From the NCBI RefSeq assembly GCF_056712565.1, contig NZ_CM160072.1: DNA of 64,000 bases; one strand, given 5' to 3'. This document shows positions 13,812 to 36,137 of the stretch, piece after piece. Numbering within the stretch: the stretch's first letter is position 1; every line of letters begins with the position of its first letter. A program made the position numbers and the translations under genes. The notes under the pieces were generated by a model. The model searched no databases, was not told where the DNA came from, and saw nothing but the letters and a program-made list of their open reading frames with translations.

Positions 13812-14675
13812 ATGATCCGCAGTATGACCGCCTACGCCCGGCGTGAAATCAAGGGTGAATGGGGGAGCGCAACCTGGGAAATGCGCTCGGTAAACCAGCG
13901 TTATCTGGAAACTTACTTTCGTCTGCCGGAGCAGTTCCGTAGCCTTGAACCTGTCGTTCGCGAGCGTATTCGTTCTCGCCTGACGCGCGGTAAAGTGGAA
14001 TGTACCCTGCGCTATGAGCCAGATGTTAGCGCGCAAGGTGAGCTGATCCTCAACGAAAAACTGGCTAAACAGCTGGTAACTGCCGCGAACTGGGTAAAAA
14101 TGCAGAGCGACGAAGGAGAAATCAACCCGGTTGATATTCTACGCTGGCCGGGCGTGATGGCAGCCCAGGAGCAAGATCTCGACGCGATTGCAGCTGAAAT
14201 TCTCGCGGCGTTGGATGGCACCCTGGATGACTTTATCATCGCGCGCGAAACCGAAGGTCAGGCGCTGAAAGTGTTGATTGAGCAGCGTCTGGAAGGCGTC
14301 ACCGCCGAAGTGGTCAAAGTCCGCGCCCATATGCCGGAAATCCTGCAATGGCAGCGTGAGCGTCTGGTAGCGAAGCTGGAAGATGCTCAGGTGCAACTGG
14401 AAAACAACCGTCTGGAGCAGGAGTTGGTTCTGCTGGCACAACGAATTGACGTTGCCGAAGAACTGGACCGCCTCGAAGCGCATGTCAAAGAGACCTACAA
14501 CATTCTGAAGAAAAAAGAAGCGGTTGGCCGTCGTCTGGACTTTATGATGCAGGAGTTCAACCGCGAGTCGAACACTCTTGCTTCGAAATCTATCAATGCC
14601 GAAGTGACGAATTCTGCCATCGAGCTGAAAGTGTTGATTGAGCAGATGCGCGAGCAGATCCAGAATATCGAATAA
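13812..14675 (+). CDS. yicC: YicC-family protein (UPF0701; YicC/YloC-type endoribonuclease family)
   Basis: 287-aa ORF MIRSMTAYARREIKGEWGSATWEMRSVNQRYLETYFRLPEQFR..., recognised as YicC. Confidence 0.85.
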   Translation: MIRSMTAYARREIKGEWGSATWEMRSVNQRYLETYFRLPEQFRSLEPVVRERIRSRLTRGKVECTLRYEPDVSAQGELILNEKLAKQLVTAANWVKMQSDEGEINPVDILRWPGVMAAQEQDLDAIAAEILAALDGTLDDFIIARETEGQALKVLIEQRLEGVTAEVVKVRAHMPEILQWQRERLVAKLEDAQVQLENNRLEQELVLLAQRIDVAEELDRLEAHVKETYNILKKKEAVGRRLDFMMQEFNRESNTLASKSINAEVTNSAIELKVLIEQMREQIQNIE

Positions 14676-14712
14676 GCTATCAGCAAAAATCACCAAGCAG
14701 CAAAAAACCATA

Positions 14713-14740
14713 AAGCCCGCGAAATGTCGGGCTTTTTTGT
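14713..14740 (+). terminator. rho-independent terminator of yicC
   Basis: aagcccgcgaaatgtcgggcttttttgt: 7-bp GC-rich stem, 7-nt loop, T-run. Confidence 0.75.
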
Positions 14741-14782
14741 TATCATGAGCTATCATAACGACGCAACAAAGCGCACAATATG

Positions 14783-14806
14783 CGTGTACATAGAGGTGTA
14801 CATAAT
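14783..14806. repeat. left boundary repeat of integrative element (putative attL or integrase arm-type sites): cgtgtacatagaggtgtacataat
   Basis: Matches 34696..34719 at 22 of 24 positions in direct orientation; contains two 12-bp units with a TGTACA palindromic core; additional degenerate copies at 14814..14836. Confidence 0.6.
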
Positions 14807-14863
14807 GACTTTCATGTACATTGCTTTATGTACACACCCATATTCGATATTCAGGTATTCGCA

Positions 14864-16132
14864 ATGCCAAAACTCACAGATATGCAGATCCGCGCATGGA
14901 TAAAGGCGGGAGACAGATTTGATGGCAAGGCAGACGGCAACGGCCTTTATATTTGCTACCCCAAAAACTACACAGTCCCGTTCTGGCGATTCCGATATAA
15001 GCTCGCAGGAAAACAGCGGGCTATGGTTATCGGCTCTTACTCCGAACTGTCACTATCAAAAGCCAGAGAAATAGCAAAAGAGCTGTCAGCCAGAGTTGCT
15101 CTTGGCTATGACGTAGCAGCAGAAAAACAGGAACGAAAAGCTGAAGCACTGGCAAAAATGGAGGCTGAGAAAAACGCCATGCGCGTTTCAGATCTGGCCG
15201 CCGAATACTTCGAGCGACAGATACTTCCGAGATGGAAACATCCCGATATCCTTCGCCGGAGAATTGATAAGGATATTAACCCCTGCATTGGGCATATGAA
15301 GGTAGAGGACGTTAAGCCACGCCACATTGACGACATGTTGAAAGGTATCGTTGACCGAGGAGCACCAACGATAGCAACAGATGTATTACGCTGGACACGC
15401 CGTATCTTTGACTATGGGATAAAACGCCACGCTCTGGAGATAAACCCTTGTTCAGCGTTTGAAGTATCTGATGCTGGTGGTAAAGAGGTTTCCCGCGACC
15501 GTTGGCTAACTCGCGATGAGCTTATCAGGCTATTCGAGGCTATGCGCACCGCAAAAGGATTCAGCCGCCAGAACGAACTGACATTTAAGCTATTGCTGGC
15601 ACTATGCGTTCGTAAGATGGAGTTATGCGCCGCACGATGGGAAGAGTTTGATTTAGATGGTGCGGTATGGCATTTGCCGGAAGAACGCAGCAAAAACGGA
15701 GACCCTATTGATATACCTCTACCTTCTCCTGCCGTTGAATGGTTGAGAGAGCTACACACCTTTTCATGTAATAGCGCATGGGTGCTTCCAGCCAGGAAGA
15801 TGCAAAACAGAATGATCCCACATATTCAGGAAAGCACTTTACCCGTAGCACTGGCTAAGGTTCGCGCCGAAATGCCGGATGTGCCTAATTTCACGATTCA
15901 CGACTTCCGGCGTACCGCACGTACTCATTTAGCAGCATTGGGTGTTGATCCTGTCGTAGCGGAACGATGCCTCAATCATCGCATTAAGGGTGTGGAGGGG
16001 ATTTATAACCGCCATCAGTATTTTGATGAGCGTAAAGCTGCGCTGGCACAGTGGGCTGATCTGCTGGTGGCACTGGAAAGCGGGAAAGACTACAACGTAA
16101 CGCCATTCGATAAAGCCCGGAGGCAAATGTGA
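14864..16132 (+). CDS. int: tyrosine site-specific integrase, P4-type (N-terminal arm-binding domain plus catalytic domain)
   Basis: 422 aa from ATG 14864 (MPKLTDMQIRAWIKAGDRFDGKADGNGLYIC...WRFRYKLAGKQR); C-terminal R..HDFRRT...Y catalytic signature (HDFRRTARTHL, IYNRHQY). Confidence 0.85.
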   Translation: MPKLTDMQIRAWIKAGDRFDGKADGNGLYICYPKNYTVPFWRFRYKLAGKQRAMVIGSYSELSLSKAREIAKELSARVALGYDVAAEKQERKAEALAKMEAEKNAMRVSDLAAEYFERQILPRWKHPDILRRRIDKDINPCIGHMKVEDVKPRHIDDMLKGIVDRGAPTIATDVLRWTRRIFDYGIKRHALEINPCSAFEVSDAGGKEVSRDRWLTRDELIRLFEAMRTAKGFSRQNELTFKLLLALCVRKMELCAARWEEFDLDGAVWHLPEERSKNGDPIDIPLPSPAVEWLRELHTFSCNSAWVLPARKMQNRMIPHIQESTLPVALAKVRAEMPDVPNFTIHDFRRTARTHLAALGVDPVVAERCLNHRIKGVEGIYNRHQYFDERKAALAQWADLLVALESGKDYNVTPFDKARRQM

Positions 16133-17250: not shown

Positions 17251-17469
17251 ATGACAGCACACAAGCCAGCATCATCAGCTATCCCAACAACTGGATACAT
17301 CCGTCGCTTTCGCATGCCGGAATTGCTAGGTGTTTCACTGCCTACTATTGATAGATGGGTTAAAAATGGCACTCTTCCACGCCCAGTGAAGCTAACAGAT
17401 AACGTGACTGCGTTTGATGCGGTGGAAATTAATAACTGGCTGGCAGAACGCCGAAACACATCAGCCTGA
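17251..17469 (+). CDS. alpA: AlpA-family phage regulatory protein / excisionase-like HTH protein
   Basis: 72-aa ORF; RFRMPELLGVSLPTIDRWVKNGTLPRPVKL is the typical AlpA/Xis-type HTH signature. Confidence 0.8.
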   Translation: MTAHKPASSAIPTTGYIRRFRMPELLGVSLPTIDRWVKNGTLPRPVKLTDNVTAFDAVEINNWLAERRNTSA

Positions 17470-23260: not shown

Positions 23261-23383
23261 GCGGGTTATGCGGGTTATCCTGTGCATAAGTTAATTAACT
23301 GCATGATTAAAAAGGAAATCAATAACCCGCACGTAACCCGCAAAACGGCAGTTATAACCCGCAAATGTGCGATTGTAACCCGC
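23261..23383. repeat. iteron-like cluster 1: two direct GCGGGTTAT copies (23261..23278) plus four inverted (A/G)TAACCCGC copies (23322..23383); candidate origin
   Basis: Read directly from sequence; between the replication protein gene and ssb. Confidence 0.7.
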
Positions 23384-23446
23384 AAAATTTCACTGTAAGA
23401 GTGTAAACAAGCGTAACTATCACGTTAAAACCGGAGAACAAACAGC

Positions 23447-23869
23447 ATGACGGCGCAAATATCAGCTTACGGGCGGCTGGTGGCTGACCCGCAGTTAAAG
23501 ACCACCAGCAAGGGCACACAAATGGCGATGGCGAGTATGGCGGTCCCCCTTCCATGCAATCAGGCAGATGACGGAACGGCGACGATGTGGTTATCCGTCC
23601 TGGCGTTTGGCAGACAGGCCGACGCACTGGCAAAACACCACAAAGGCGAACTGGTGAGCGTGGCGGGTAACATGCAGGTAAGCCAGTGGACAGGCCAGAA
23701 CGGCGAAACGCGGCAGGGCTGGCAGGTTATCGCAGACAGCGTAATCAGTGCGAGAACGGCGCGACCGGGCGGCAAAAAAGGCCAGCAAGGGCAGGCTACT
23801 GACGCACTGAACAGGGCAAAACAACAGGCGGGTAACGACGATCCGTACGGGGACGGGATACCGTTTTAA
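23447..23869 (+). CDS. ssb: single-stranded DNA-binding protein (SSB)
   Basis: 140-aa ORF with OB-fold-like N-terminus, Gly/Gln-rich linker and acidic C-terminal tip ...DDPYGDGIPF typical of SSB. Confidence 0.75.
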   Translation: MTAQISAYGRLVADPQLKTTSKGTQMAMASMAVPLPCNQADDGTATMWLSVLAFGRQADALAKHHKGELVSVAGNMQVSQWTGQNGETRQGWQVIADSVISARTARPGGKKGQQGQATDALNRAKQQAGNDDPYGDGIPF

Positions 23870-24403: not shown

Positions 24404-24800
24404 TCACGCACATGGTCGCCGTGCAGGTGATCACATTGTGGATGAAATGGCGGAAAAACAAAGAGTTGACATTATTGTCAGTGTCACAGTCGAGAGCGCG
24501 AAGCGCCAAAATAAGCGTATAAATGATCGTTCAGATGTACATGGTGTGATCACTCGTTTACGCCAGACTTTTGTAACTCGTGAAGAGATGATTGAAGCTA
24601 TTGACCAGCATACAGCATGTATCAGCGTCAGGGATATACCGGAGGTCATTGCTAACTACTTCATGATCACCAGACGCCTTTACCGGAGAAAAGACAAGAG
24701 CACGGTTAACCGTCTCCTGATGTCTGATATTCGCGAATACCTGCAAGAAAGGGGCTATGTGAATCCACCAGAACAGCGCTACGGAAGAGTCGGAGGCTAA
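24384..24800 (+). CDS. hypothetical protein (138 aa), start overlaps FinO-like gene
   Basis: ORF with 20-bp overlap with upstream gene; no family recognised. Confidence 0.4.
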
Positions 24801-25166
24801 CTAAAACCCTGTACCGAAGAGCGGCGGCGCGATGGGGTGAAGTAATGCAGTTGGGAAACTGATAAGGAACGGTATTACATATCAATGCGACGACTGGAAT
24901 GTTCCAGGAAGGCACAGAGGCCACCGAAGCAACCGGATAATTTAGAAGACCTGAAACGGTCGCTTAAACGCACTGAAAAAGAAATGGGGATAGATGGGAT
25001 CGGGAAATCAGTATGGCGTAACTACCAGAAGTAAGCACAGAGCCGGAGCAATCCGGCTTTTTTTGGGGCTGAAATCAATCAATCTGTTTTTGTGATAGAA
25101 ATATGTTTATCTACCACTTTTTCAGATCAATAATGTGCATAGTTTAGTCAGTAAGAGGAAATTGCT

Positions 25167-25469: not shown

Positions 25470-28001
25470 ATGCCAGTCGTACCAACAGTATCCGGACGTC
25501 AGGTTGAGAGCCGTGGAGTTCAGTCAGCAGGCTTGCAGACGTTTTCTCAGCCAGGTATTAGTGATGCTTTTGTTCGTGCAGGAGCAGAGGCAATTGATGT
25601 TCTGGGTCAGGCAAAACAGCGTGCCAATATTGCCTTGGTTCAGGAGGCATCCCTTAAACTCAGTCAGACAGGCAGTGATCTGCTGAATAATCCTGAAACA
25701 GGATTGCTTAACCTGAAAGGGAAAAATGCTATTGGAAAAGGCCATGAGTATACGCAGCAGTTTGATGCTCAGGTCGAACAACTGGCTATGTCGCTGCCGG
25801 ATGAACAGGCCCGTAATGCTTTCATGCAGCAGGCACAGCAGCAGCGCATTCAGTTCACTACGCAGGCCGGGCGGTACGAGATCGGGCAAATAAATGCCTA
25901 CGAAGAAGGCCAGTTTCAGGCTACGCTGCTGAACAATGGTAAAAATGCCGCAGCATTGTATGGCGACAACGCCGCATACGTATTGGCTAATAAGCAAACT
26001 TTCCAGCAAATTGAGGAGTACGGCATTGCGCATGGCTGGAGCGACGAGCAGATTCGGGCCAGGAAAATCGAGTTTAAAGAAGCAACAGCAAAAGCAACTG
26101 CTCAAAATGCTATTGGAGCAAACTATCTTCAGGTAAGACAGCAAAACGGCGAGTTAAGCGATACTGCTGCTGGAGCTCGCCGTGCTGTAGCAGATAGTGG
26201 ATCTTCCGATCGTACCCGCGGTATACGCAACAATAACCCCGGCAATCTTGAATACAGCAAAACTAATCCGTGGGTTGGGCAGACTGGTGATGATGGTCGC
26301 TTTGCTAAATTCGAAACACCTGAACACGGTATTCGTGCATTAGGGCGGAACCTGATGTCGTATCAGCGGCAGGGTATTGATACCGTCAGCGAGATAATTA
26401 ATCGCTGGGCACCGCCTACTGATAAAAATGACACTATGTCGTATATCAAAGCAGTGTGCGAACAACTTGGCGTTTCTGCTGATGATCCTATAGATGCATC
26501 TAATCCGGATACCCTGAAGGCGCTTTGTGCAGCCATTATCCATCATGAAAACGGTAGCCAGCCATACAGTGATCAGCAGTTAACTGCAGGTGTTAGTGCT
26601 GCGCTGGGGCTTTCTCAGCTACCGACAAAAAATAAACGTTATACCGGTGTAGCCTGGTTCGATGCTTTAAGTGAATCGGATCAGGCCAGCGTGTTGCGAC
26701 AGACTGATGCACTAGCCAGACAACAGCAGGCTGAATATAAAACGATGCTCGACAGCCAGGTTCGCGATGCGACAGCTGCGTATATGCGTGGCGTTGAATT
26801 TCCTAACCCACCAGGTGAGGCTGATTTTATTGCAGCTTATGGCGTCAGAGAAGGAAACCTGCGATATACCGAGTTCAGAAATACGCAGATCGCCGGACAG
26901 TATATAGGCTCTTTCCGCAACATGCCGACAAGCAGCATTACCGCATATGTTGAGCAATTGCGCCCGGATACTGGTGAAACAGGGGAGGGGTATGCGTCTC
27001 GTGCGAAGTTATTCGACCGGGTATCGGCGGCAGCCACGAAGGTAATAACCCAGAGGCAGAATAATCCGTTTAGTGCAGCGGTGGAAATCGGAGCCTATAA
27101 GCCGATCACCAGCAACAACCCTGACGACATCACTGCCGAGGTGGCTAACCGTTTCTCGTCGCAGGAAAGCTTACGCGCGTTGGGAATTAATGCCCCAATC
27201 CTCAACAGTGAAGAGGCGGCTGCGCTGGCACAGCAGGTGCGCGGCACTCAAAACGTTGACCAGACAATTAAACTGTTGCAGAGCATGGGGGAAAAGCTAC
27301 CTGCGCCAGCAATACGGCAGGTGGCATCTGTAATTGCTCCGAACAGTGCAGCAACAGCCTATTCTGCGCTGCTGCTGGGCACGCCGGATAATCAGTACGA
27401 TAACACCAGGCCGTCGATCCCATATAGTCAGTTCATCGGGTATAAGCCGACGATGAACAAGTACGACGTTGCAAAGGTTATTCTTTCCGGTGACCAACTA
27501 CTGAATCCGACGAAGGCTATGAAGAATGCGGGCATAACTCCGGTACAGTTGCCGAGCGAAGATAAAATGAAGCGCGCTTTCGACGAACAGGTTGGTAATG
27601 CATTTGCCCGTAACCCAGAGACGCGCCAGATCAGTTATAGCCTTTTCAAAGCCGCTTACGCAGGAATCGCTTATCAGTCTGGTAATGCGTCTATGACGAG
27701 CACAGATGCGGTTAACTCCGATGTGGCGGAGAAAGCTGCGCAGTACGCAACAGGCGGTGTATACAAGAGATTTAATGGTGGTGATGTTGTAATGCCTTTC
27801 GGCATGGATGAATCCACTTTCAAAGATCGCTATACCACATCAGCGAAACAAGCACTGAAAGATGCCGGACTTAACGTAAATGCAGTGTCAAACTTCACAC
27901 CAGTTAATATCGGCAATAACCGGTATCGGCTGGTAAATGGTAGCGGACGCTGGGCAACAGATCCCAGAACCAATGAAGCTATTGTCGTGAGGGTTGAATA
28001 A
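25470..28001 (+). CDS. large hypothetical protein A (843 aa), Q/A-rich, with conserved central segment GIRNNNPGNLEYSKTNPWVGQ...WAPPTDKNDT...HHENG
   Basis: Strong SD (aggagg) 8 nt upstream of ATG; stop overlaps next start (TAATG). Composition resembles phage internal virion / ejection or polyvalent proteins; no family confidently assigned. Confidence 0.6.
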   Translation: MPVVPTVSGRQVESRGVQSAGLQTFSQPGISDAFVRAGAEAIDVLGQAKQRANIALVQEASLKLSQTGSDLLNNPETGLLNLKGKNAIGKGHEYTQQFDAQVEQLAMSLPDEQARNAFMQQAQQQRIQFTTQAGRYEIGQINAYEEGQFQATLLNNGKNAAALYGDNAAYVLANKQTFQQIEEYGIAHGWSDEQIRARKIEFKEATAKATAQNAIGANYLQVRQQNGELSDTAAGARRAVADSGSSDRTRGIRNNNPGNLEYSKTNPWVGQTGDDGRFAKFETPEHGIRALGRNLMSYQRQGIDTVSEIINRWAPPTDKNDTMSYIKAVCEQLGVSADDPIDASNPDTLKALCAAIIHHENGSQPYSDQQLTAGVSAALGLSQLPTKNKRYTGVAWFDALSESDQASVLRQTDALARQQQAEYKTMLDSQVRDATAAYMRGVEFPNPPGEADFIAAYGVREGNLRYTEFRNTQIAGQYIGSFRNMPTSSITAYVEQLRPDTGETGEGYASRAKLFDRVSAAATKVITQRQNNPFSAAVEIGAYKPITSNNPDDITAEVANRFSSQESLRALGINAPILNSEEAAALAQQVRGTQNVDQTIKLLQSMGEKLPAPAIRQVASVIAPNSAATAYSALLLGTPDNQYDNTRPSIPYSQFIGYKPTMNKYDVAKVILSGDQLLNPTKAMKNAGITPVQLPSEDKMKRAFDEQVGNAFARNPETRQISYSLFKAAYAGIAYQSGNASMTSTDAVNSDVAEKAAQYATGGVYKRFNGGDVVMPFGMDESTFKDRYTTSAKQALKDAGLNVNAVSNFTPVNIGNNRYRLVNGSGRWATDPRTNEAIVVRVE

Positions 28002-30061
28002 TGTCTGATGTTTTTTCTTTGGCTCCAGAAGGTCAGGCATGGATTGACGACAAAACAGTTGCCAACCCAGCAAGGCCAGAAGACTACGATCCGACTCCCT
28101 TCCAGGGTTCAGGTACTGCACTTTTGAGCGGCGTGGCGGAGGGGGCTCTCGGTCTCGCGCAGTCTGCCGTCGGATTCAGCAAGCGCCTGATTAGCGATCC
28201 GGCATTTACCGCAGACGTGGCACCGACTGTTAATATTTTTCGGGAGATGTTCCCTGATGCTGACAAAACACTGAATGATACATACGACACGATCGGAAAA
28301 CAGTTACAGGATGCCCGCAGCTATGTGAAGCCTGATGCAGGCAGTCAGGGAATGGCGGCTGAGGTATTAAATGAGCTTGGTAAATTTGTTCCTGCAATCG
28401 GAACAACTATGTTTGGCGGTCCCCTCATCGGCGCTGCTACAGCTTTCAGTTCTACGTATGAGCAGTCCTATCAGGATTTTAAAGGGAAGGGAGTAGACGA
28501 GGCTACGGCGCGTAACCTGGCAACGCAGCAAAGCCTTTTCAATGCTGTGGGTATGGCCTTACCCGCTGCCGTCGGCACCACACTGGCAACGCGCATTGCC
28601 TCAGGTGTGGCAATCAACACCGGATTCGGTGGACTGAACCGTTACTCTGTCGGCGCAACACTGGAGGAAAAAGGCTACACGGAGATGGCAAAACAGTACC
28701 GGGTATTTGACGGTCAGGCGATGTTAGTCGATGCCGTTTTAGGCGGGGTCTTTGGTGGCGTTCATCACCTGACTACCCATAATAACCATGATGGTACAGA
28801 GTCGAACATTTCTGCAGAAGAAATAAAATCAACTTTTGGTGAACATTATCAGCAATCTCCTGATGGTAACATTGAGTCAATGGTTCGTGATTTATCTGAT
28901 TCAGGAGTAATAGAACTTATTAATGAACCAGCAATAAAAAATAGTGATGGAGAAATACTTCTGAATAAAGGTCATGTGACAGTAGCTTCTGGAAAAGAAC
29001 CAATAATAAGAATAAATATTAATGGATTAAAAGATCATGAAGAACTGTTAGAAACCCTTCATCACGAGGCGCTTCATCTTGAGCAGCGCCATTACCCTGA
29101 CTGGAAGGCCAGAAAGCTAGCTAATGCTGTACTTAAATCTGCAAACAAGCATTCTGACTATCCTGAATTTGCATATGGGATGTCACAATATTATGAATAT
29201 AAGAAAAGGGGTGAGTACCCTGAAACATATCCTGAGTGGTTGTACGCTGAAGAAGTTGCCGCACATGCAGTAAATCCATCTCTAAAGACAAGCGTTTCAT
29301 CATGGGAAAAAATTATTTCAGGTTTTAAAGCCTATATATTCAGATACAGTGGTATTCAGGTTGGAACCGTTACACCTGAGCAGTTACGGTTACTCGTAAG
29401 TATGCGTCTTCGCAATATGAAACTGGAAGCCGCAGTCGAAAAAGTTTTTGGTATCCGGGCAAGGGAAAGAATAAAACCAAGCGATATTGATGCAGCCCAC
29501 ATTTTGAATGAGGGGCTTCATTACGATATTGAATCGTCACCAGTGCTTCACACCAGCAATGAGAGCATCAACAGCCATGTTGACGCCATGGATGAAGCAT
29601 ACAGGCAACTTAATGATGGTCAGCCTGTAAATGTTGGGGGGATGGCGCGAGGGCTTGATGGTCCATTGCGATCAGATATATCTGATACTTACCAAGAGCA
29701 ATACCATGAAATACAAAAGGTTTTTGAAGAAAATGGTGTCAGATATGAAACATCATCAGAGCCAATTAGTGAATCGCCTGTCCCTCGTGCTGAAAGTGCT
29801 TTCTCATCGGCTGGTGAACACAGAGGGGACGTCAGCGTTGATCCAGATACAGGGCAGGTTCTCTCATCCAACAGCTATGACCTTATGGCTGCCAGAGACA
29901 TGGCTGTTGCCAATCCTGAGCTGACTATAGCTCACCCGGAAACCGGAAACCCGACAAAACTTTCTGATCTCCTGGCTGAGTTGGATGAACAGATTAAGAC
30001 AGTCCAGAACGAATCGAAGGTTTATTCTGTAGCGGCAGCGTGCTTCTTGAGGAACCCATAA
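28001..30061 (+). CDS. large hypothetical protein B (686 aa) with glycine-zipper-like hydrophobic N-terminal region and HExxH zinc-metallopeptidase motif (LHHEALHLEQRH)
   Basis: Translationally coupled on both sides; HEALH motif encoded within a conspicuously AT-rich segment (about 28790..29350). Confidence 0.6.
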   Translation: MSDVFSLAPEGQAWIDDKTVANPARPEDYDPTPFQGSGTALLSGVAEGALGLAQSAVGFSKRLISDPAFTADVAPTVNIFREMFPDADKTLNDTYDTIGKQLQDARSYVKPDAGSQGMAAEVLNELGKFVPAIGTTMFGGPLIGAATAFSSTYEQSYQDFKGKGVDEATARNLATQQSLFNAVGMALPAAVGTTLATRIASGVAINTGFGGLNRYSVGATLEEKGYTEMAKQYRVFDGQAMLVDAVLGGVFGGVHHLTTHNNHDGTESNISAEEIKSTFGEHYQQSPDGNIESMVRDLSDSGVIELINEPAIKNSDGEILLNKGHVTVASGKEPIIRININGLKDHEELLETLHHEALHLEQRHYPDWKARKLANAVLKSANKHSDYPEFAYGMSQYYEYKKRGEYPETYPEWLYAEEVAAHAVNPSLKTSVSSWEKIISGFKAYIFRYSGIQVGTVTPEQLRLLVSMRLRNMKLEAAVEKVFGIRARERIKPSDIDAAHILNEGLHYDIESSPVLHTSNESINSHVDAMDEAYRQLNDGQPVNVGGMARGLDGPLRSDISDTYQEQYHEIQKVFEENGVRYETSSEPISESPVPRAESAFSSAGEHRGDVSVDPDTGQVLSSNSYDLMAARDMAVANPELTIAHPETGNPTKLSDLLAELDEQIKTVQNESKVYSVAAACFLRNP

Positions 30062-32817
30062 TGAAACAGGCATGTGTTGAAGCTATTGCGCAGACACTTG
30101 GTCGCCAGCCAAAGGCTGATGAGCTGAAAAATATCGAAGATCGTATCAAAGAAGCAGTGCAACATGTGCACAGAAAGAATGCAAAAGAAGGCAAAAGTGG
30201 TATTCCTGATGCTCAAACATACATGGATGCTGCAGAACTGGTACGCCAGCGTGTGGTTCATGATGTGTACAAGAAAAGACAGCGTGTTGCCCAGAATGCG
30301 ATCGCCATCAGTAAAATTACTGACACTCTCGATGCTAACATCCCGCCTGATCAGCAGACACCTGTTAATTTGCAGCAGTTTATTTTTGCTGGCCGACGAT
30401 CGAGAGACAAAGCTGATATCTCCGTTGCTTCTGCTGAAGAGCTTGCAATTGGGGCATATCAGGACTGGTCCCGTCAGCTCAGTGCTGAACTTCTAAAAGC
30501 AGGTGATGACGTCCGCAAATTCTTCGAGCAGAGCAGGGCGCTTGGAGAGCAGCGGTTTCGGAGTGTATTCGACAGGCAGGCGGCAAAGTCTGCACAACTC
30601 CAGATCCTGAAAGAAATTTATGGCGAAGATACCGGGAATCCCCTGGCGAAGAAAATTGCACAGATTTGGAAGGATGTAACAGGCCGTGTTCGTCATGAGA
30701 TGAACGACAACGGCTTTGACATAGGCCTGCGAGAAGACTGGCATACGCCATATGTGGATGATGCTGACCTTATTCGCAATGCCGGGCGCGAAGAATGGCT
30801 GGCATCGTTACCAGTGGCAGAGCAAGCTACAGCACGTCTTTCAGGTCGCCAGCCACCGATTGAGTTTGCCCGCCAGAAATGGGTTGATGACGCTTACAAC
30901 ACGCAGGATCGCAGCAATTACGTTAATCCTGACGGCAGCATTATGAATGACGTCGAGTACCGTCAGGCACTGGAAGCGATCTTTGAAACGAAGGCCACTG
31001 ATGGGGCAAACAAAATTGAGCCCGGTACATTTATGGGAGCCGGAGGAATAAAGAGCCGTGGTTCTCAGCACAGGGTGATGGCGTTCAAGGATGCGCAGTC
31101 ACACTTCGCCTATATGGAGCGATACACTCAGCAGCCGCTGGTGGGGGTGATGATGTCGCACCTGCAATCATCATCCAGGGATTTGGGCGTCGTTAAAGCC
31201 TTTGGTCCGGACGCCGAAAGAAACTTTTCCCTGGTACTGGATCGCATCTATAAGCGCGCAGTAACAGGCGGGAAACGCAAAAAAGAAATGGAGGATGAGG
31301 CCAAATTAGTAGCCCGTATGTTCAACTCAATGGCTGGCCTAAATGGTGTCGCTTCATCGAGTGTGTTCTCTTCAGCTGTTGGTGGTCTGCGTAACCTGAT
31401 GACCAGCGCCATGCTTGGCACCAGCGTACTGACAGCAACCAGCGACCAGGCAATTATGCGGGCAAATGCGCAGGCGCTGGGCTTTACCCGTGGTGGAATG
31501 CGGCTTTCCGTTAACACTATCAAAAACCTGTTTAGTGGAGATGCCAAAAAGGCGAATGCTGAACTCGGTCTGCTGGTGGATTCACATGCTGCTGTGGTTT
31601 CGAAAATGGGCGGGTTTGACTTGTCTCGCGGCATAACTGGCTGGTTCGCAGAGAAGACACTGAAGTGGTCCGGGCTGATCGCTATGGACCGCGCAAACAA
31701 AGCGTCGTTTGGTCTCCTGATGTACAAAAACATTGGCGAGCTGACCAGAAAATTTAAGACGCTGGACGATATGAAAGGAACCGATAAAACCATTCTGGCT
31801 AACAAGGGATGGAGCAATGAGGACTGGGCCATCATGGCAGCGGCAGAACTCAGGCCGATGACTACTGCCGGGCATATGGGGATGACGCCAGACGCGATTT
31901 ACGCTGTGCCCGATAACGTAATCGCCGACATTATGGCAGACCGTATTACCCGGATTCGTGCCGGGAGTGAAAAGGCACTGGCAGCACTTGGAGATCTCCC
32001 TCCAGAACGCCTGAAACGGATGAAAGAAGCATTCGACGCTGAGGCTGAGCAGACCATCACGCGCATGATTCGTAATGCACGCGCTGAAGCAGCCCATAAA
32101 TTGCTGGGAATTACGCACGGTGAGATGACCAATGCTGTGACCACCGCTACGGGTATTGATACATATGCCCGTGATGATGCTGGCGAGTTAATGAAGAGCT
32201 TCATGCTCTTCAAAACAACCCCATTTGCTGGATTTCGGCAACTTGTTAACAGAACACGGGATTTGGACACCGTTCCGGCCATTAAATTTCTGGCCTCATA
32301 TATCGGGGGAACAACTCTTGCTGGTATGTTTGCGATCCAGATGAACAGTTTGTTAAATGGTAATGATCCGCTGGATATGACAAAACCAACCACATGGGTT
32401 CAGGCTTTACTGAAAGGTGGTTCGTTCGGTATCTACGGTGATTTTATTTTCCAGGACCATACGCAATATGGCTCCAGCATCGGTGCCACTATGGGTGGCC
32501 CTGTGTTGAGCTTTGCAGAGCAGTTAACAAAATTACTGATTACTAACCCACAGAAGGCTCTACAGGGTGAAGAAACATCATTCGGTGCCGATGCACTGAA
32601 AACAGCCCGCATGATCACCCCATTCGCAAACCTGTGGTATGCGAAAGCGATAACCAATCACCTGATATTGCAACAACTTCAGGAGATGGCAAACCCTGGT
32701 TACAATGATCGAGTAAGGGACCGCGCGCAACGGGAGTTCGACATAACGAGTTGGTGGGAACCGGGTGCTATTGCGCCACGTAGAGCACCGGATTTTGGAA
32801 AGGCGGTAGGGGAATGA
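30061..32817 (+). CDS. large hypothetical protein C (about 918 aa)
   Basis: ATG at 30061 overlaps stop of protein B (TAATG); ORF track offers an upstream GTG at 30040. Stop overlaps start of the next small ORF (ATGA). Confidence 0.6.
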   Translation: MKQACVEAIAQTLGRQPKADELKNIEDRIKEAVQHVHRKNAKEGKSGIPDAQTYMDAAELVRQRVVHDVYKKRQRVAQNAIAISKITDTLDANIPPDQQTPVNLQQFIFAGRRSRDKADISVASAEELAIGAYQDWSRQLSAELLKAGDDVRKFFEQSRALGEQRFRSVFDRQAAKSAQLQILKEIYGEDTGNPLAKKIAQIWKDVTGRVRHEMNDNGFDIGLREDWHTPYVDDADLIRNAGREEWLASLPVAEQATARLSGRQPPIEFARQKWVDDAYNTQDRSNYVNPDGSIMNDVEYRQALEAIFETKATDGANKIEPGTFMGAGGIKSRGSQHRVMAFKDAQSHFAYMERYTQQPLVGVMMSHLQSSSRDLGVVKAFGPDAERNFSLVLDRIYKRAVTGGKRKKEMEDEAKLVARMFNSMAGLNGVASSSVFSSAVGGLRNLMTSAMLGTSVLTATSDQAIMRANAQALGFTRGGMRLSVNTIKNLFSGDAKKANAELGLLVDSHAAVVSKMGGFDLSRGITGWFAEKTLKWSGLIAMDRANKASFGLLMYKNIGELTRKFKTLDDMKGTDKTILANKGWSNEDWAIMAAAELRPMTTAGHMGMTPDAIYAVPDNVIADIMADRITRIRAGSEKALAALGDLPPERLKRMKEAFDAEAEQTITRMIRNARAEAAHKLLGITHGEMTNAVTTATGIDTYARDDAGELMKSFMLFKTTPFAGFRQLVNRTRDLDTVPAIKFLASYIGGTTLAGMFAIQMNSLLNGNDPLDMTKPTTWVQALLKGGSFGIYGDFIFQDHTQYGSSIGATMGGPVLSFAEQLTKLLITNPQKALQGEETSFGADALKTARMITPFANLWYAKAITNHLILQQLQEMANPGYNDRVRDRAQREFDITSWWEPGAIAPRRAPDFGKAVGE

Positions 32818-33237: not shown

Positions 33238-33528
33238 GTGGTGGGGATTGCACTGGATAATTGCAGCCCCATTGCTTTCATCGTGAGCTATATTCCATTT
33301 GTTGGAGCGATTGTTGGTATGGTTGGCGCTATGGATGTATGGTGTTGGGAGTGGTGGCAGGCTGGCCTTCTATTCTTTGGTGGATCATCTTTGCTATTGT
33401 CAGCGGTGGAATGTCATCATTTTTCGAATGGCTATCATTCAGAAAAAGAGCGTGACATGTCACAGGCCGCTTTCGCGGCCTTGTTTTTAACGAATGCCAC
33501 CGCCGCCCGGGCGGGAATCCGCAGATAA
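33238..33528 (+). CDS. possible small membrane protein (96 aa); reading frame uncertain (three overlapping ORFs)
   Basis: Hydrophobic segments; alternative frames 33261..33455 and 33299..33490 also open. Confidence 0.3.
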   Translation: MVGIALDNCSPIAFIVSYIPFVGAIVGMVGAMDVWCWEWWQAGLLFFGGSSLLLSAVECHHFSNGYHSEKERDMSQAAFAALFLTNATAARAGIRR

Positions 33529-34156
33529 AAAAGCCCGCTGCACGGTTTTATTAATACTTATACCATTAGGATTGATCCTTCAATGGACAATCCTTCCATC
33601 GTGTGGCCAGCCATTCATATTCTTTGTCTTTTCTTCAGTACCGGCTTTGCATCTTCTACACCCTGAAAGATGTCGTTTTATGGTGTATCTGATGATTTAT
33701 TCCCTAACAATAGATATTCGAAAAATTAATCAGTTAAAACAATTATTTGGATAATTTCAGGTAAAAACTATCTTAATCTTCTGGTGGATCTCAATGCGCC
33801 GTGACGGTATCGGGATTAAGGGCGTGGATATTCGCGATATATGCCGCTACACCCCTCAACAGTAATAGATATGCGCTTTTCACGCTCTCCTTTCACTGCT
33901 GAGAACGGCAACAACGTGCCACAGGAACGCGCTGTAATCGATTCTGACGCACTTAATTGCGTTGGGTAATGGTTTGCCAGCCTGTGGGGGTAACTCTGTT
34001 TTATGAGGCTTTGGCTATAGTGCAAAAATGCACTTTGTCTTGCCTCTCAATTTGATGAGACTGGAACGACAACAGGACAGACCACCAGCAACAGTTACCG
34101 TATTCAGCCGTTCTGTGGCACCAGTGGAACTATCCACCCCTGCTTTCAGCAATGTG

Positions 34157-34311
34157 TTTGCGGGTTATTTTGGGGCGTTTGCGGGTTATTTGGGATGTTT
34201 TGCGGGTTATGCGATGCTTGAATAATGAACAGTGCATTTTGCAACATATTGATACTAAAGAACAAAAAATAGTTAGCACACTAAGATAACCCGGTAACCC
34301 GCATAACCCGC
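34157..34311. repeat. iteron-like cluster 2: three direct TTTGCGGGTTAT copies at 21-bp spacing (34157..34210) plus three contiguous inverted TAACCCG(C/G) copies (34286..34311)
   Basis: Read directly; same 9-mer as cluster 1, about 11 kb away near the right end of the element. Confidence 0.7.
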
Positions 34312-34695
34312 ACTGTTTTGTATATATATACGAAAAATTGCATTCAGGAGGGGGGATCGAAATCCCTACAACCCATTGCTTATGGGACCGCCGCCTCGTC
34401 AAATTTTTACACCCGCGAAATAAAAAATACTTCACGCTGGTGGGCATGATGCTGATATGAGAGGCTTCCATAACGCCACCATTCGAAACTATGCAAATCT
34501 GCATAGAAAAGGGGATGCCTGATACAATACCCTCGCCCGATAAAATCACACCGATAAACTCATCTGCCACGAGTAGAAAGAGCGAACGAACCCGATACGC
34601 AGTAATGCTGGTCGGGTCCAGCTTTTTAAGGCGGCTGTAGATATCAGGCCATCCGTGATCATCCACCAGCGTAATTGCTGAACGCTTTAAAAAAA

Positions 34696-34719
34696 CGTGT
34701 ACATAAGGGTGTACATAAT
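34696..34719. repeat. right boundary repeat of integrative element (putative attR or arm-type sites): cgtgtacataagggtgtacataat
   Basis: 22 of 24 identity with 14783..14806, direct orientation. Confidence 0.6.
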
Positions 34720-34960
34720 CAAAAACCGCATTAGAAAGAAACCAGATACAATGCGGCATTGAAGCCAACACTCTACAAACAGATCCAGAACATTGAATAA
34801 CTCGTAACGCCAATTCTTCCTTTTCAGCCTTCACAAATGCCGCCCACTCAAACAGAGCGGCATTTTTCCTCCCCGCAACATTCAATTCTGTTTTGCGTGC
34901 CTGCTCCAGATTTTGCGATGTTTTTTTGCCCAGCGCAGTGAGAACGTGAGATACTCACAA

Positions 34961-34976
34961 CTGTATATAAACACAG
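34961..34976 (+). promoter_or_regulatory. LexA (SOS) box of dinD: CTGTATATAAACACAG
   Basis: Matches CTGT-N8-ACAG consensus, 46 bp upstream of dinD start. Confidence 0.8.
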
Positions 34977-35021
34977 TTGTAAACTTACTTTCCTTGCAAT
35001 CGATATCATATGGAGTGGGCA

Positions 35022-35846
35022 ATGAACGAACATCATCAACCTTTTGAAGAAATACGGCATTATGGCACTGAAGGGCAAGAATTTTGGTCAGCGAGAGAAT
35101 TGGCACCGTTACTGGATTATCGGGACTGGCGCAATTTTCAAAAGGTACTGGCCCGCGCGACTCAAGCGTGCGAAGCCAGCAATCAAGCTGCATCTGACCA
35201 TTTCGTTGAAACCACCAAAATGGTTGTATTAGGTTCAGGGGCTCAACGAGAACTTGAAGATGTTCATCTCTCCCGCTATGCCTGTTACCTGGTAGTACAA
35301 AACGGCGACCCTGCGAAACCGGTTATTGCGGCAGGGCAAACTTATTTTGCTATCCAGACCCGACGGCAGGAGCTGGCTGACGATGAAGCTTTCAGGCAAC
35401 TTCGTGAAGACGAAAAGCGTCTTTTTCTGAGAAATGAGTTGAAAGAACATAACAAACAATTAGTTGAGGCAGCGCAGCAAGCTGGGGTAGCGACAGCTAT
35501 CGATTTCGCCATATTTCAGAATCATGGTTACCGGGGACTGTATGGTGGATTAGATCAGAAAGCCATCCATCAGCGGAAGGGGCTGAAAAAGAGTCAGAAG
35601 ATCCTGGATCATATGGGTTCAACAGAACTGGCGGCTAATCTCTTTCGAGCTACCCAAACAGAAGAAAAACTCAAGCGGGATGGCGTGAATTCAAAACAGC
35701 AAGCTAATACCACACACTTTGACGTGGGTCGCAAGGTGAGGCAAACCATTCAGGAACTTGGCGGAACCATGCCTGAGGAGTTGCCGACCCCGCAGGTCAG
35801 CATCAAGCAGTTGGAAAACAGTGTAAAAATTACAGAGAAGAAATAG
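35022..35846 (+). CDS. dinD: DNA damage-inducible protein D
   Basis: MNEHHQPFEEIRHYGTEGQEFWSARELAPLLDYRDWRNFQKVL... (274 aa), recognised as DinD; LexA box upstream. Confidence 0.85.
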   Translation: MNEHHQPFEEIRHYGTEGQEFWSARELAPLLDYRDWRNFQKVLARATQACEASNQAASDHFVETTKMVVLGSGAQRELEDVHLSRYACYLVVQNGDPAKPVIAAGQTYFAIQTRRQELADDEAFRQLREDEKRLFLRNELKEHNKQLVEAAQQAGVATAIDFAIFQNHGYRGLYGGLDQKAIHQRKGLKKSQKILDHMGSTELAANLFRATQTEEKLKRDGVNSKQQANTTHFDVGRKVRQTIQELGGTMPEELPTPQVSIKQLENSVKITEKK

Positions 35847-36137
35847 CAGAAAATAAAAACTCTTTTTGTTGATTGAGATACCCGATGCGTAAGCCAAAGT
35901 CCAGGTGCGGTGAACACAATGGCTAAACATTGCACCTTTCTTTTCCACCCCTCAATTTTAACCTATTTTTTCTTATGCATTTTCTCAGACAAGAAGTCAG
36001 AAGAATGCATCTACGCTACAGAAAATAGCGATTTCACATAACTACAAGTTATCAATTTCCTCTCACCTTAAAAAATCTCAATCGTGACAATACGCACAAA
36101 TCGCTACCCTGCCAGACAGATTTTTAGGGAGAGAACC

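Follow-up and report, generated by a model that had tools for sequence, protein, structure and literature searches.

The segment at positions 34696–35021 of the 64,000-nt stretch of DNA analyzed here (hereafter, the window) is best read as the right attachment junction (attR) of a ~20-kb, PICI-like, integrase-bearing island inserted in the last 21 bp of yicC, followed by an unaltered yicC–dinD intergenic region; we give this reading a probability of about 0.85. The window is part of an E. coli chromosome: positions 33500–36000 match the avian pathogenic (APEC) strain E18055 over their full length with 100.0% reported identity, and the gene order (from the ORF list and PGAP annotation) is rph, yicC, the island, dinD, yicG, and ligB. 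In K-12, yicC and dinD are adjacent genes spaced 220 bp apart; the island amounts to ~20.1 kb, and about 20 sequenced genomes share its exact right end. Because published PICIs and Vibrio MGIs also target yicC, the junction is an ordinary, already known kind of feature at a known site. The features on which the analysis draws are as follows:

13812–14675, + strand: yicC coding sequence (ORF list, PGAP annotation of the matching genome, and alignments with K-12 and ESM2.2)
14655–14675, + strand: attL core CAGATCCAGAATATCGAATAA, the last 7 yicC codons including the stop; K-12/ESM2.2 homology ends exactly at 14675
14712–14741, + strand: predicted island-supplied intrinsic terminator, an 8-bp stem followed by a T-run (terminator scan)
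14784–14835: P′-arm cluster of GTGTACATA sites, direct at 14784–14792 and 14796–14804 and inverted at 14827–14835, plus a 7/9 copy at 14814–14822
14864–16132, + strand: tyrosine integrase, 422 aa (Pfam Arm-DNA-bind_3 [1e-19], Phage_int_M, and Phage_integrase; PGAP)
17251–17469, + strand: AlpA-family HTH protein, candidate excision/regulatory factor (Pfam Phage_AlpA, 26.4 bits versus a cutoff of 21)
34689–34779, + strand: conserved P arm, common to islands with unrelated cargo; in attP, it directly adjoins the core, which the P′ arm follows
34697–34705 and 34709–34717, + strand: two tandem GTGTACATA sites in the P arm, previously taken for a boundary repeat
34780–34800, + strand: attR core CAGATCCAGAACATTGAATAA, the true right junction; it has the yicC 3′ end in its chromosomal version and is identical to the ESM2.2 attB
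34835–34870, + strand: native yicC intrinsic terminator (stem at 34835–34865), between attR and the dinD promoter
34961–34976: dinD LexA (SOS) box CTGTATATAAACACAG, orthologous to the K-12 box CTGTATATAAATACAG
35022–35846, + strand: dinD coding sequence, 274 aa

The boundaries of the island are directly visible in alignments. Homology of the window to K-12 and to ESM2.2 (an island-free strain of the same lineage) stops at the yicC stop codon and restarts only at 34780. Likewise, when 5,426 complete E. coli genomes were surveyed, matches of the attR query in island-free genomes start at query position 201, which corresponds to 34780, and the uninterrupted yicC/intergenic junction is present in 4,192 of the 5,426. 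The original prediction had the element end with a boundary repeat at 34719. That repeat (CGTGTACATAAGGGTGTACATAAT, 34696–34719) is real, and a repeat search recovers a 22/24 copy of it at 14783–14806; but since homology restarts at 34780 and not at 34720, the repeat lies 60 bp inside the element. The accompanying estimate of an insertion ~300 bp upstream of the SOS box also fails, in that 34719 to 34961 leaves only 241 bp (~300 bp being the distance from 34719 to the dinD ATG at 35022). From the end of the attR core, the LexA box is 160 bp away, compared to 159 bp from the yicC stop codon in K-12, the window having a 1-bp insertion. The broader statement that the integrated element abuts the dinD upstream region is correct: island DNA begins 182 bp upstream of the LexA box.

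The same 21-bp core is found at both junctions and, as the last 21 bp of yicC, in the empty sites of ESM2.2 and K-12. Its attL and attR copies are identical at 19 of 21 positions (repeat search). Both differences are synonymous, and the YicC C terminus (…QIQNIE*) is unchanged despite the two island-type bases in the last 21 nt of the gene. Given that the island-type bases are at attL and the chromosome-type bases at attR, crossover must have occurred somewhere in the first 11 bp of the core. Under the 21-bp-core model, the attP and attB junctions are predicted at CAGATYCAGAAYATYGAATAA.

Using as a query the P arm, core, and P′ arm of the window joined in silico, we found a contiguous 300-nt attP in three records (100% of the query, 96 to 97% identity). 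The first is a circular “plasmid” of 12,152 bp (pZ1323CEC0013_1-4, NZ_CP148430.1), which is a relative of the island that encodes the integrase, an AlpA-like HTH protein, AntA/B, a DUF927 primase, and PerC. The second is “phage_14408_2” of strain NRZ14408 (NZ_LT599831.1), deposited on its own as a linear record of 19,226 bp, and the third is the joint of a head-to-tail tandem pair of islands at yicC in strain HB37 (NZ_CP053080.1). In these relatives, attP reads …CTCTACAAA-CAGATTCAGAATATCGAATAA-GCTATCAG…, that is, P arm, 21-bp core, and P′ arm, and its occurrence in circular and tandem forms therefore fixes the ends of the element at the 21-bp core. Relatives of the island thus excise, which is an observation on those relatives and not on the window's own strain, and they are probably maintained as episomes. 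With a shared core, an intact attP, and, adjoining one island end, an integrase that has both catalytic and arm-binding domains, the island fits a tyrosine-recombinase-integrated element with a lambda-type att site.

What had been taken for the boundary, then, belongs to the arms of this att site. Exact copies of GTGTACATA number five in the 64 kb of the window, versus an expectation of ~0.5 for a 9-mer with both strands counted, and every one is situated at the ends of the element, no farther than about 160 bp from the cores. Two are in the P arm, and the remaining three form the P′ cluster, which ends 28 bp before the int ATG. The P arm is present in 245 of 5,426 E. coli genomes and the P′ arm in 279, and the tandem GTGTACATA pair is invariant in an alignment of eight out of eight islands with different cargo. 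The 2 + 3 layout around the core, the arm-binding domain of the integrase, and the tendency of the motif to travel with integrases together suggest that the repeats are probably integrase arm-type sites. Most likely, the five sites (two in P and three in P′) would be bound by the N-terminal arm-binding domain to form the integration/excision complex, with strand exchange having taken place at the 21-bp core at 34780–34800; the P′ sites, which lie upstream of int, probably also serve in autoregulation of that gene.

The motif extends well beyond this island. Scanning one genome per species for GTGTACATANNNGTGTACATA, which has 18 specified bases, returned 107 stretches versus ~9 expected. In 25 of the 107, the tandem motif is positioned 2 to 114 bp upstream of, and is co-oriented with, a related integrase, and where identity to the window integrase was detected, it ranges from 22 to 80%; yicC-linked cases of motif plus integrase occur in E. 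albertii and Chromobacterium. In another 44, the tandem GTGTACATA-N3-GTGTACATA arrangement is found ~13 bp upstream of the start codon of prfC, in taxa that include Acinetobacter, Burkholderiales, and Neisseriaceae, and several of these contigs also carry an integrase-linked copy with which the prfC-linked one is paired. The prfC-linked motif might be an arm of islands that target the 5′ end of prfC or might be a native prfC element, the latter being possible in some taxa. The wide spread of the tandem motif with related integrases could help to map islands of this integrase clade.

Alternatively, the GTGTACATA repeats could be operators for an island regulator or excision factor, such as the AlpA-like protein, which would control int expression or directionality without the integrase binding them. 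The left copies are directly upstream of int, where its promoter must sit, and in KplE1 both the integrase and the directionality factor bind the attL/int-promoter region (PMC2951348). We nevertheless consider this unlikely: the sites are located in both arms flanking the core, 2 + 3, as in a classical attP; the motif accompanies integrases of only 22 to 80% identity in elements otherwise unrelated in content; and the integrase possesses a dedicated domain for binding such arms. Arm-type sites remain the preferred reading, and comparable systems bear on it in two ways. A core flanked by arm-type repeats, in combination with an integrase that has a separate arm-binding domain, is the arrangement of lambda-type attP sites, and the overlap of attL with the region where the int promoter must lie is shared with KplE1, of the KplE1/HK620 recombination module. 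In KplE1, attL overlaps the int promoter, and the integrase represses its own gene (PMC2951348). The window differs from all of these in its arm motif (GTGTACATA) and in its target, and the binding and autoregulation that we propose for it are inferred.

On the chromosomal side of the junction, the dinD promoter is intact. The LexA box predicted at 34961–34976 is indeed there, and CTGTATATAAACACAG is the sole CTGT-N8-ACAG with an A/T-rich center in the window. In its 20-nt form, AACTGTATATAAACACAGTT, the site matches the LexA consensus TACTGTATATATATACAGTA at 16 of 20 positions, is a CTG-N10-CAG palindrome with 9 of 10 central positions A/T, and is the best site in the 64 kb. It aligns base for base with the upstream region of dinD in K-12, where the promoter (AACTGTATATAAA[T/C]ACAGTT) has its box at the orthologous position and at the same 45 bp from the ATG. 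The K-12 box differs from that of the window by one T-to-C change in the A/T-rich center; as the C variant is also present in island-free ESM2.2, it is a lineage polymorphism. The entire interval from 34780 to 35030 is 100% identical to ESM2.2, C-variant box included, from which it follows that the insertion left the 242 bp preceding the dinD start codon unchanged and that the LexA-regulated promoter was preserved, as originally claimed. This promoter belongs to a classical LexA-dependent SOS gene (heterology index of 2.2, 9.8-fold induction, and 12-fold LexA dependence; PMC11228462). With everything downstream of the core as in island-free strains, the island would be expected neither to change the regulation of dinD nor to be coupled to it.

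The original prediction went further, proposing that an element ending at 34719, so near an SOS-induced promoter, would permit read-in or read-out during the SOS response and thereby couple island expression to the induction of helper prophages. Several observations lend this some appeal: the LexA box is real and strong, island DNA comes within 182 bp of it, and the PGAP annotation includes a junction-crossing ORF on the minus strand. The anatomy of the region, however, offers the idea no support, and we regard it as highly improbable. The boundary is at 34780–34800. Because dinD is a + strand gene whose transcription leads away from the island, its promoter has no means of reading in, and no minus-strand promoter-like site was found in 34000–35200. 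Read-out from the island must pass a + strand terminator-like hairpin at 34607–34622 and then the native yicC terminator, whose 9-bp stem (−12.4 kcal/mol by RNA folding) is followed by a U-run and takes the same fold in K-12; the latter terminator would have insulated dinD from yicC even before the insertion. Nor did a consensus scan of the window detect a LexA box within the island (a look-alike at 34316–34335, the sole match of a looser scan, lacks the CTG/CAG ends and was rejected). Finally, the adjacency to dinD arises because the integrase targets the 3′ end of yicC, a target also used by related islands and by Vibrio MGIs. Transcriptional coupling between the island and dinD is therefore predicted to be absent.

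The crossing ORF (251 aa, 34130–34885) has its start codon in core DNA; from there it passes antisense across the yicC terminator and attR to a stop within iteron-like repeats. Were it real, its transcript would enter the island from the dinD side. We do not accept it as a gene: its start codon is TTG and lacks a Shine-Dalgarno sequence, it has no Pfam or PHROG match, its 3′ part consists of translated iteron repeats, and close relatives have additional in-frame stops. The inverted repeat CCGCATT-N17-AATGCGG in the P arm (34726–34756) was similarly discarded as a minus-strand terminator, its left half not being conserved among islands. A search of Rfam with positions 14400–35200 (E ≤ 1) produced no match, hence there is no known RNA at the junction. 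Within the otherwise noncoding stretch at 34519–34631 (+ strand), a promoter-like CTGATA-16-TAAAAT is followed ~60 nt later by the hairpin at 34607–34622 and a T-run, and this stretch could specify a small transcript.

At the left end, attP brings a synonymous yicC 3′ end together with its own terminator, such that YicC is restored at attL. Hairpins homologous to that at 14712–14741 are present in the attL of the PICIs CfCIP10159 and EcCIRM13514, and this terminator is predicted now to end the yicC transcript and to shield int. With the boundaries corrected, the island appears as an element that repairs its target gene, supplies the terminator, and leaves the SOS promoter of dinD as it is in island-free strains; accordingly, there are no grounds to expect that SOS regulation is altered or that the SOS response drives transcription of the island.

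The right junction is not uniform among relatives. At seven other loci, including the HB37 tandem, the attR core is shorter by 2, 4, 9, or 11 bp immediately after CAGATYCA, and the reference PICIs also have a 2-bp gap at attR. Because attL and attP of the gapped relatives are full length, the attR gaps look like secondary lesions and may represent recurrent damage at the cleavage site. Offset integration was rejected as their source: the attL of CU532-9 lacks a compensating duplication, and attP has the full 21-mer. It is conceivable, though very improbable, that the LexA box acts in cis on recombination rather than on transcription, in which case LexA occupancy, or its release during the SOS response, could alter assembly of the attR intasome and tie excision to DNA damage. 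A related and equally remote idea is that the attR gaps are integrase-made scars that immobilize islands next to dinD.

There is virtually no chance that the 24-nt GTGTACATA repeat is itself the recombination core and the 21-mer at 34780–34800 the relic of an older event: although no direct repeat flanking the island is longer and PHAST assigned the same motif (TGTGTACATAATTGTGTACATA) to Moraxella prophages as their “att site” (PMC4619438), both the repeat and the 60 bp between it and 34780 are absent from island-free genomes, and in attP the two repeat clusters flank the 21-bp core with ~170 bp between them, such that the comparisons with attB and attP refute it. We read the PHAST call in Moraxella as the same confusion of repeat and att site that produced the boundary at 34719. 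The main value of the present analysis lies in this correction, namely, that an island's att site need not be the longest of its flanking direct repeats. In the present case, that repeat is an arm motif inside the element, and the actual core, 21 bp long, mimics the end of the target gene.

As judged from its genes and att arms, the island appears to be a PICI-like phage satellite. It has the PICI layout of int, alpA, and a DUF927 primase (the module order being int, AlpA-like HTH, and then DUF927/TOPRIM primase), with iteron-like repeats downstream of the primase, a size of ~20.1 kb, and a specific att site. No helper-packaging genes (small terminase, Rpp/Ppi, or capsid remodeling) were recognized in the subset of ORFs scanned. 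The closest described systems are the Gram-negative PICIs EcCIRM13514 and CfCIP10159, which have been remapped to yicC in a preprint from the Williams laboratory that also noted att “drift” at this site (bioRxiv 10.1101/2022.07.18.500453). These PICIs and the window island have in common the last codons of yicC as a target, the order of integrase, AlpA-like HTH, and DUF927/TOPRIM primase genes, and a homologous attL arm with its terminator hairpin and its replacement for the 3′ end of yicC. They are distinguished by three large homologues of virion/ejection proteins in the window island, which are not among the modules listed for the reference PICIs, and the P arm of EcCIRM13514 differs from that of the window. 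The Vibrio MGIs MGIVchUSA1, MGIVflInd1, and MGIVmi1 also integrate at the 3′ end of yicC (PMC5704250) and likewise have a tyrosine integrase directed at that site; however, they are mobilized by SXT/R391 conjugative elements, whereas the window island has phage-type genes along with a primase, and neither an oriT nor a mobilization function was identified in it. Literature searches on yicC, dinD, and integrase in combination, and on EcCIRM13514, turned up nothing further.

The three large cargo proteins are encoded codirectionally (ORFs at 25470–28001, 28001–30061, and 30040–32817) and have no match in Pfam or PADLOC. Two of them match PHROGs over their full length, to phrog_992 (“head protein”) and phrog_684 (“virion structural protein”), with the former match also being similar to injection transglycosylase families; the middle protein has its match, mostly N-terminal, in phrog_1145 (unknown function). 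After these virion/ejection-protein matches, the possibility that the cargo is an unknown defense operon was dropped. Relatives of the island have P22-type “DNA ejection/injection” proteins in the same slot as these ORFs. Based on such homologies, the satellite family seems to carry swappable modules of virion ejection proteins.

Iteron-like repeats (GTTTGCGGGTTAT…, with inverted copies GTAACCCGCAAAAC) are concentrated in two places, at 23265–23388, just downstream of the DUF927 primase, and at 34156–34307, near the right end of the island, and they may correspond to an origin and a second iteron cluster. Genes for the island SSB (~23447–23869) and a PerC-family protein (~24800–25030) are annotated as frameshifted in the E18055 RefSeq genome. 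The neighborhood of the right end also varies among strains: in E. coli UTAK-6, dinD at the same island end has an internal stop in the annotation and is listed as a pseudogene, and in E. coli U15A (NZ_CP035720.1), the conserved P arm plus CAGATCCA is followed by unrelated DNA and then yicG, with dinD and its promoter absent beside the island.
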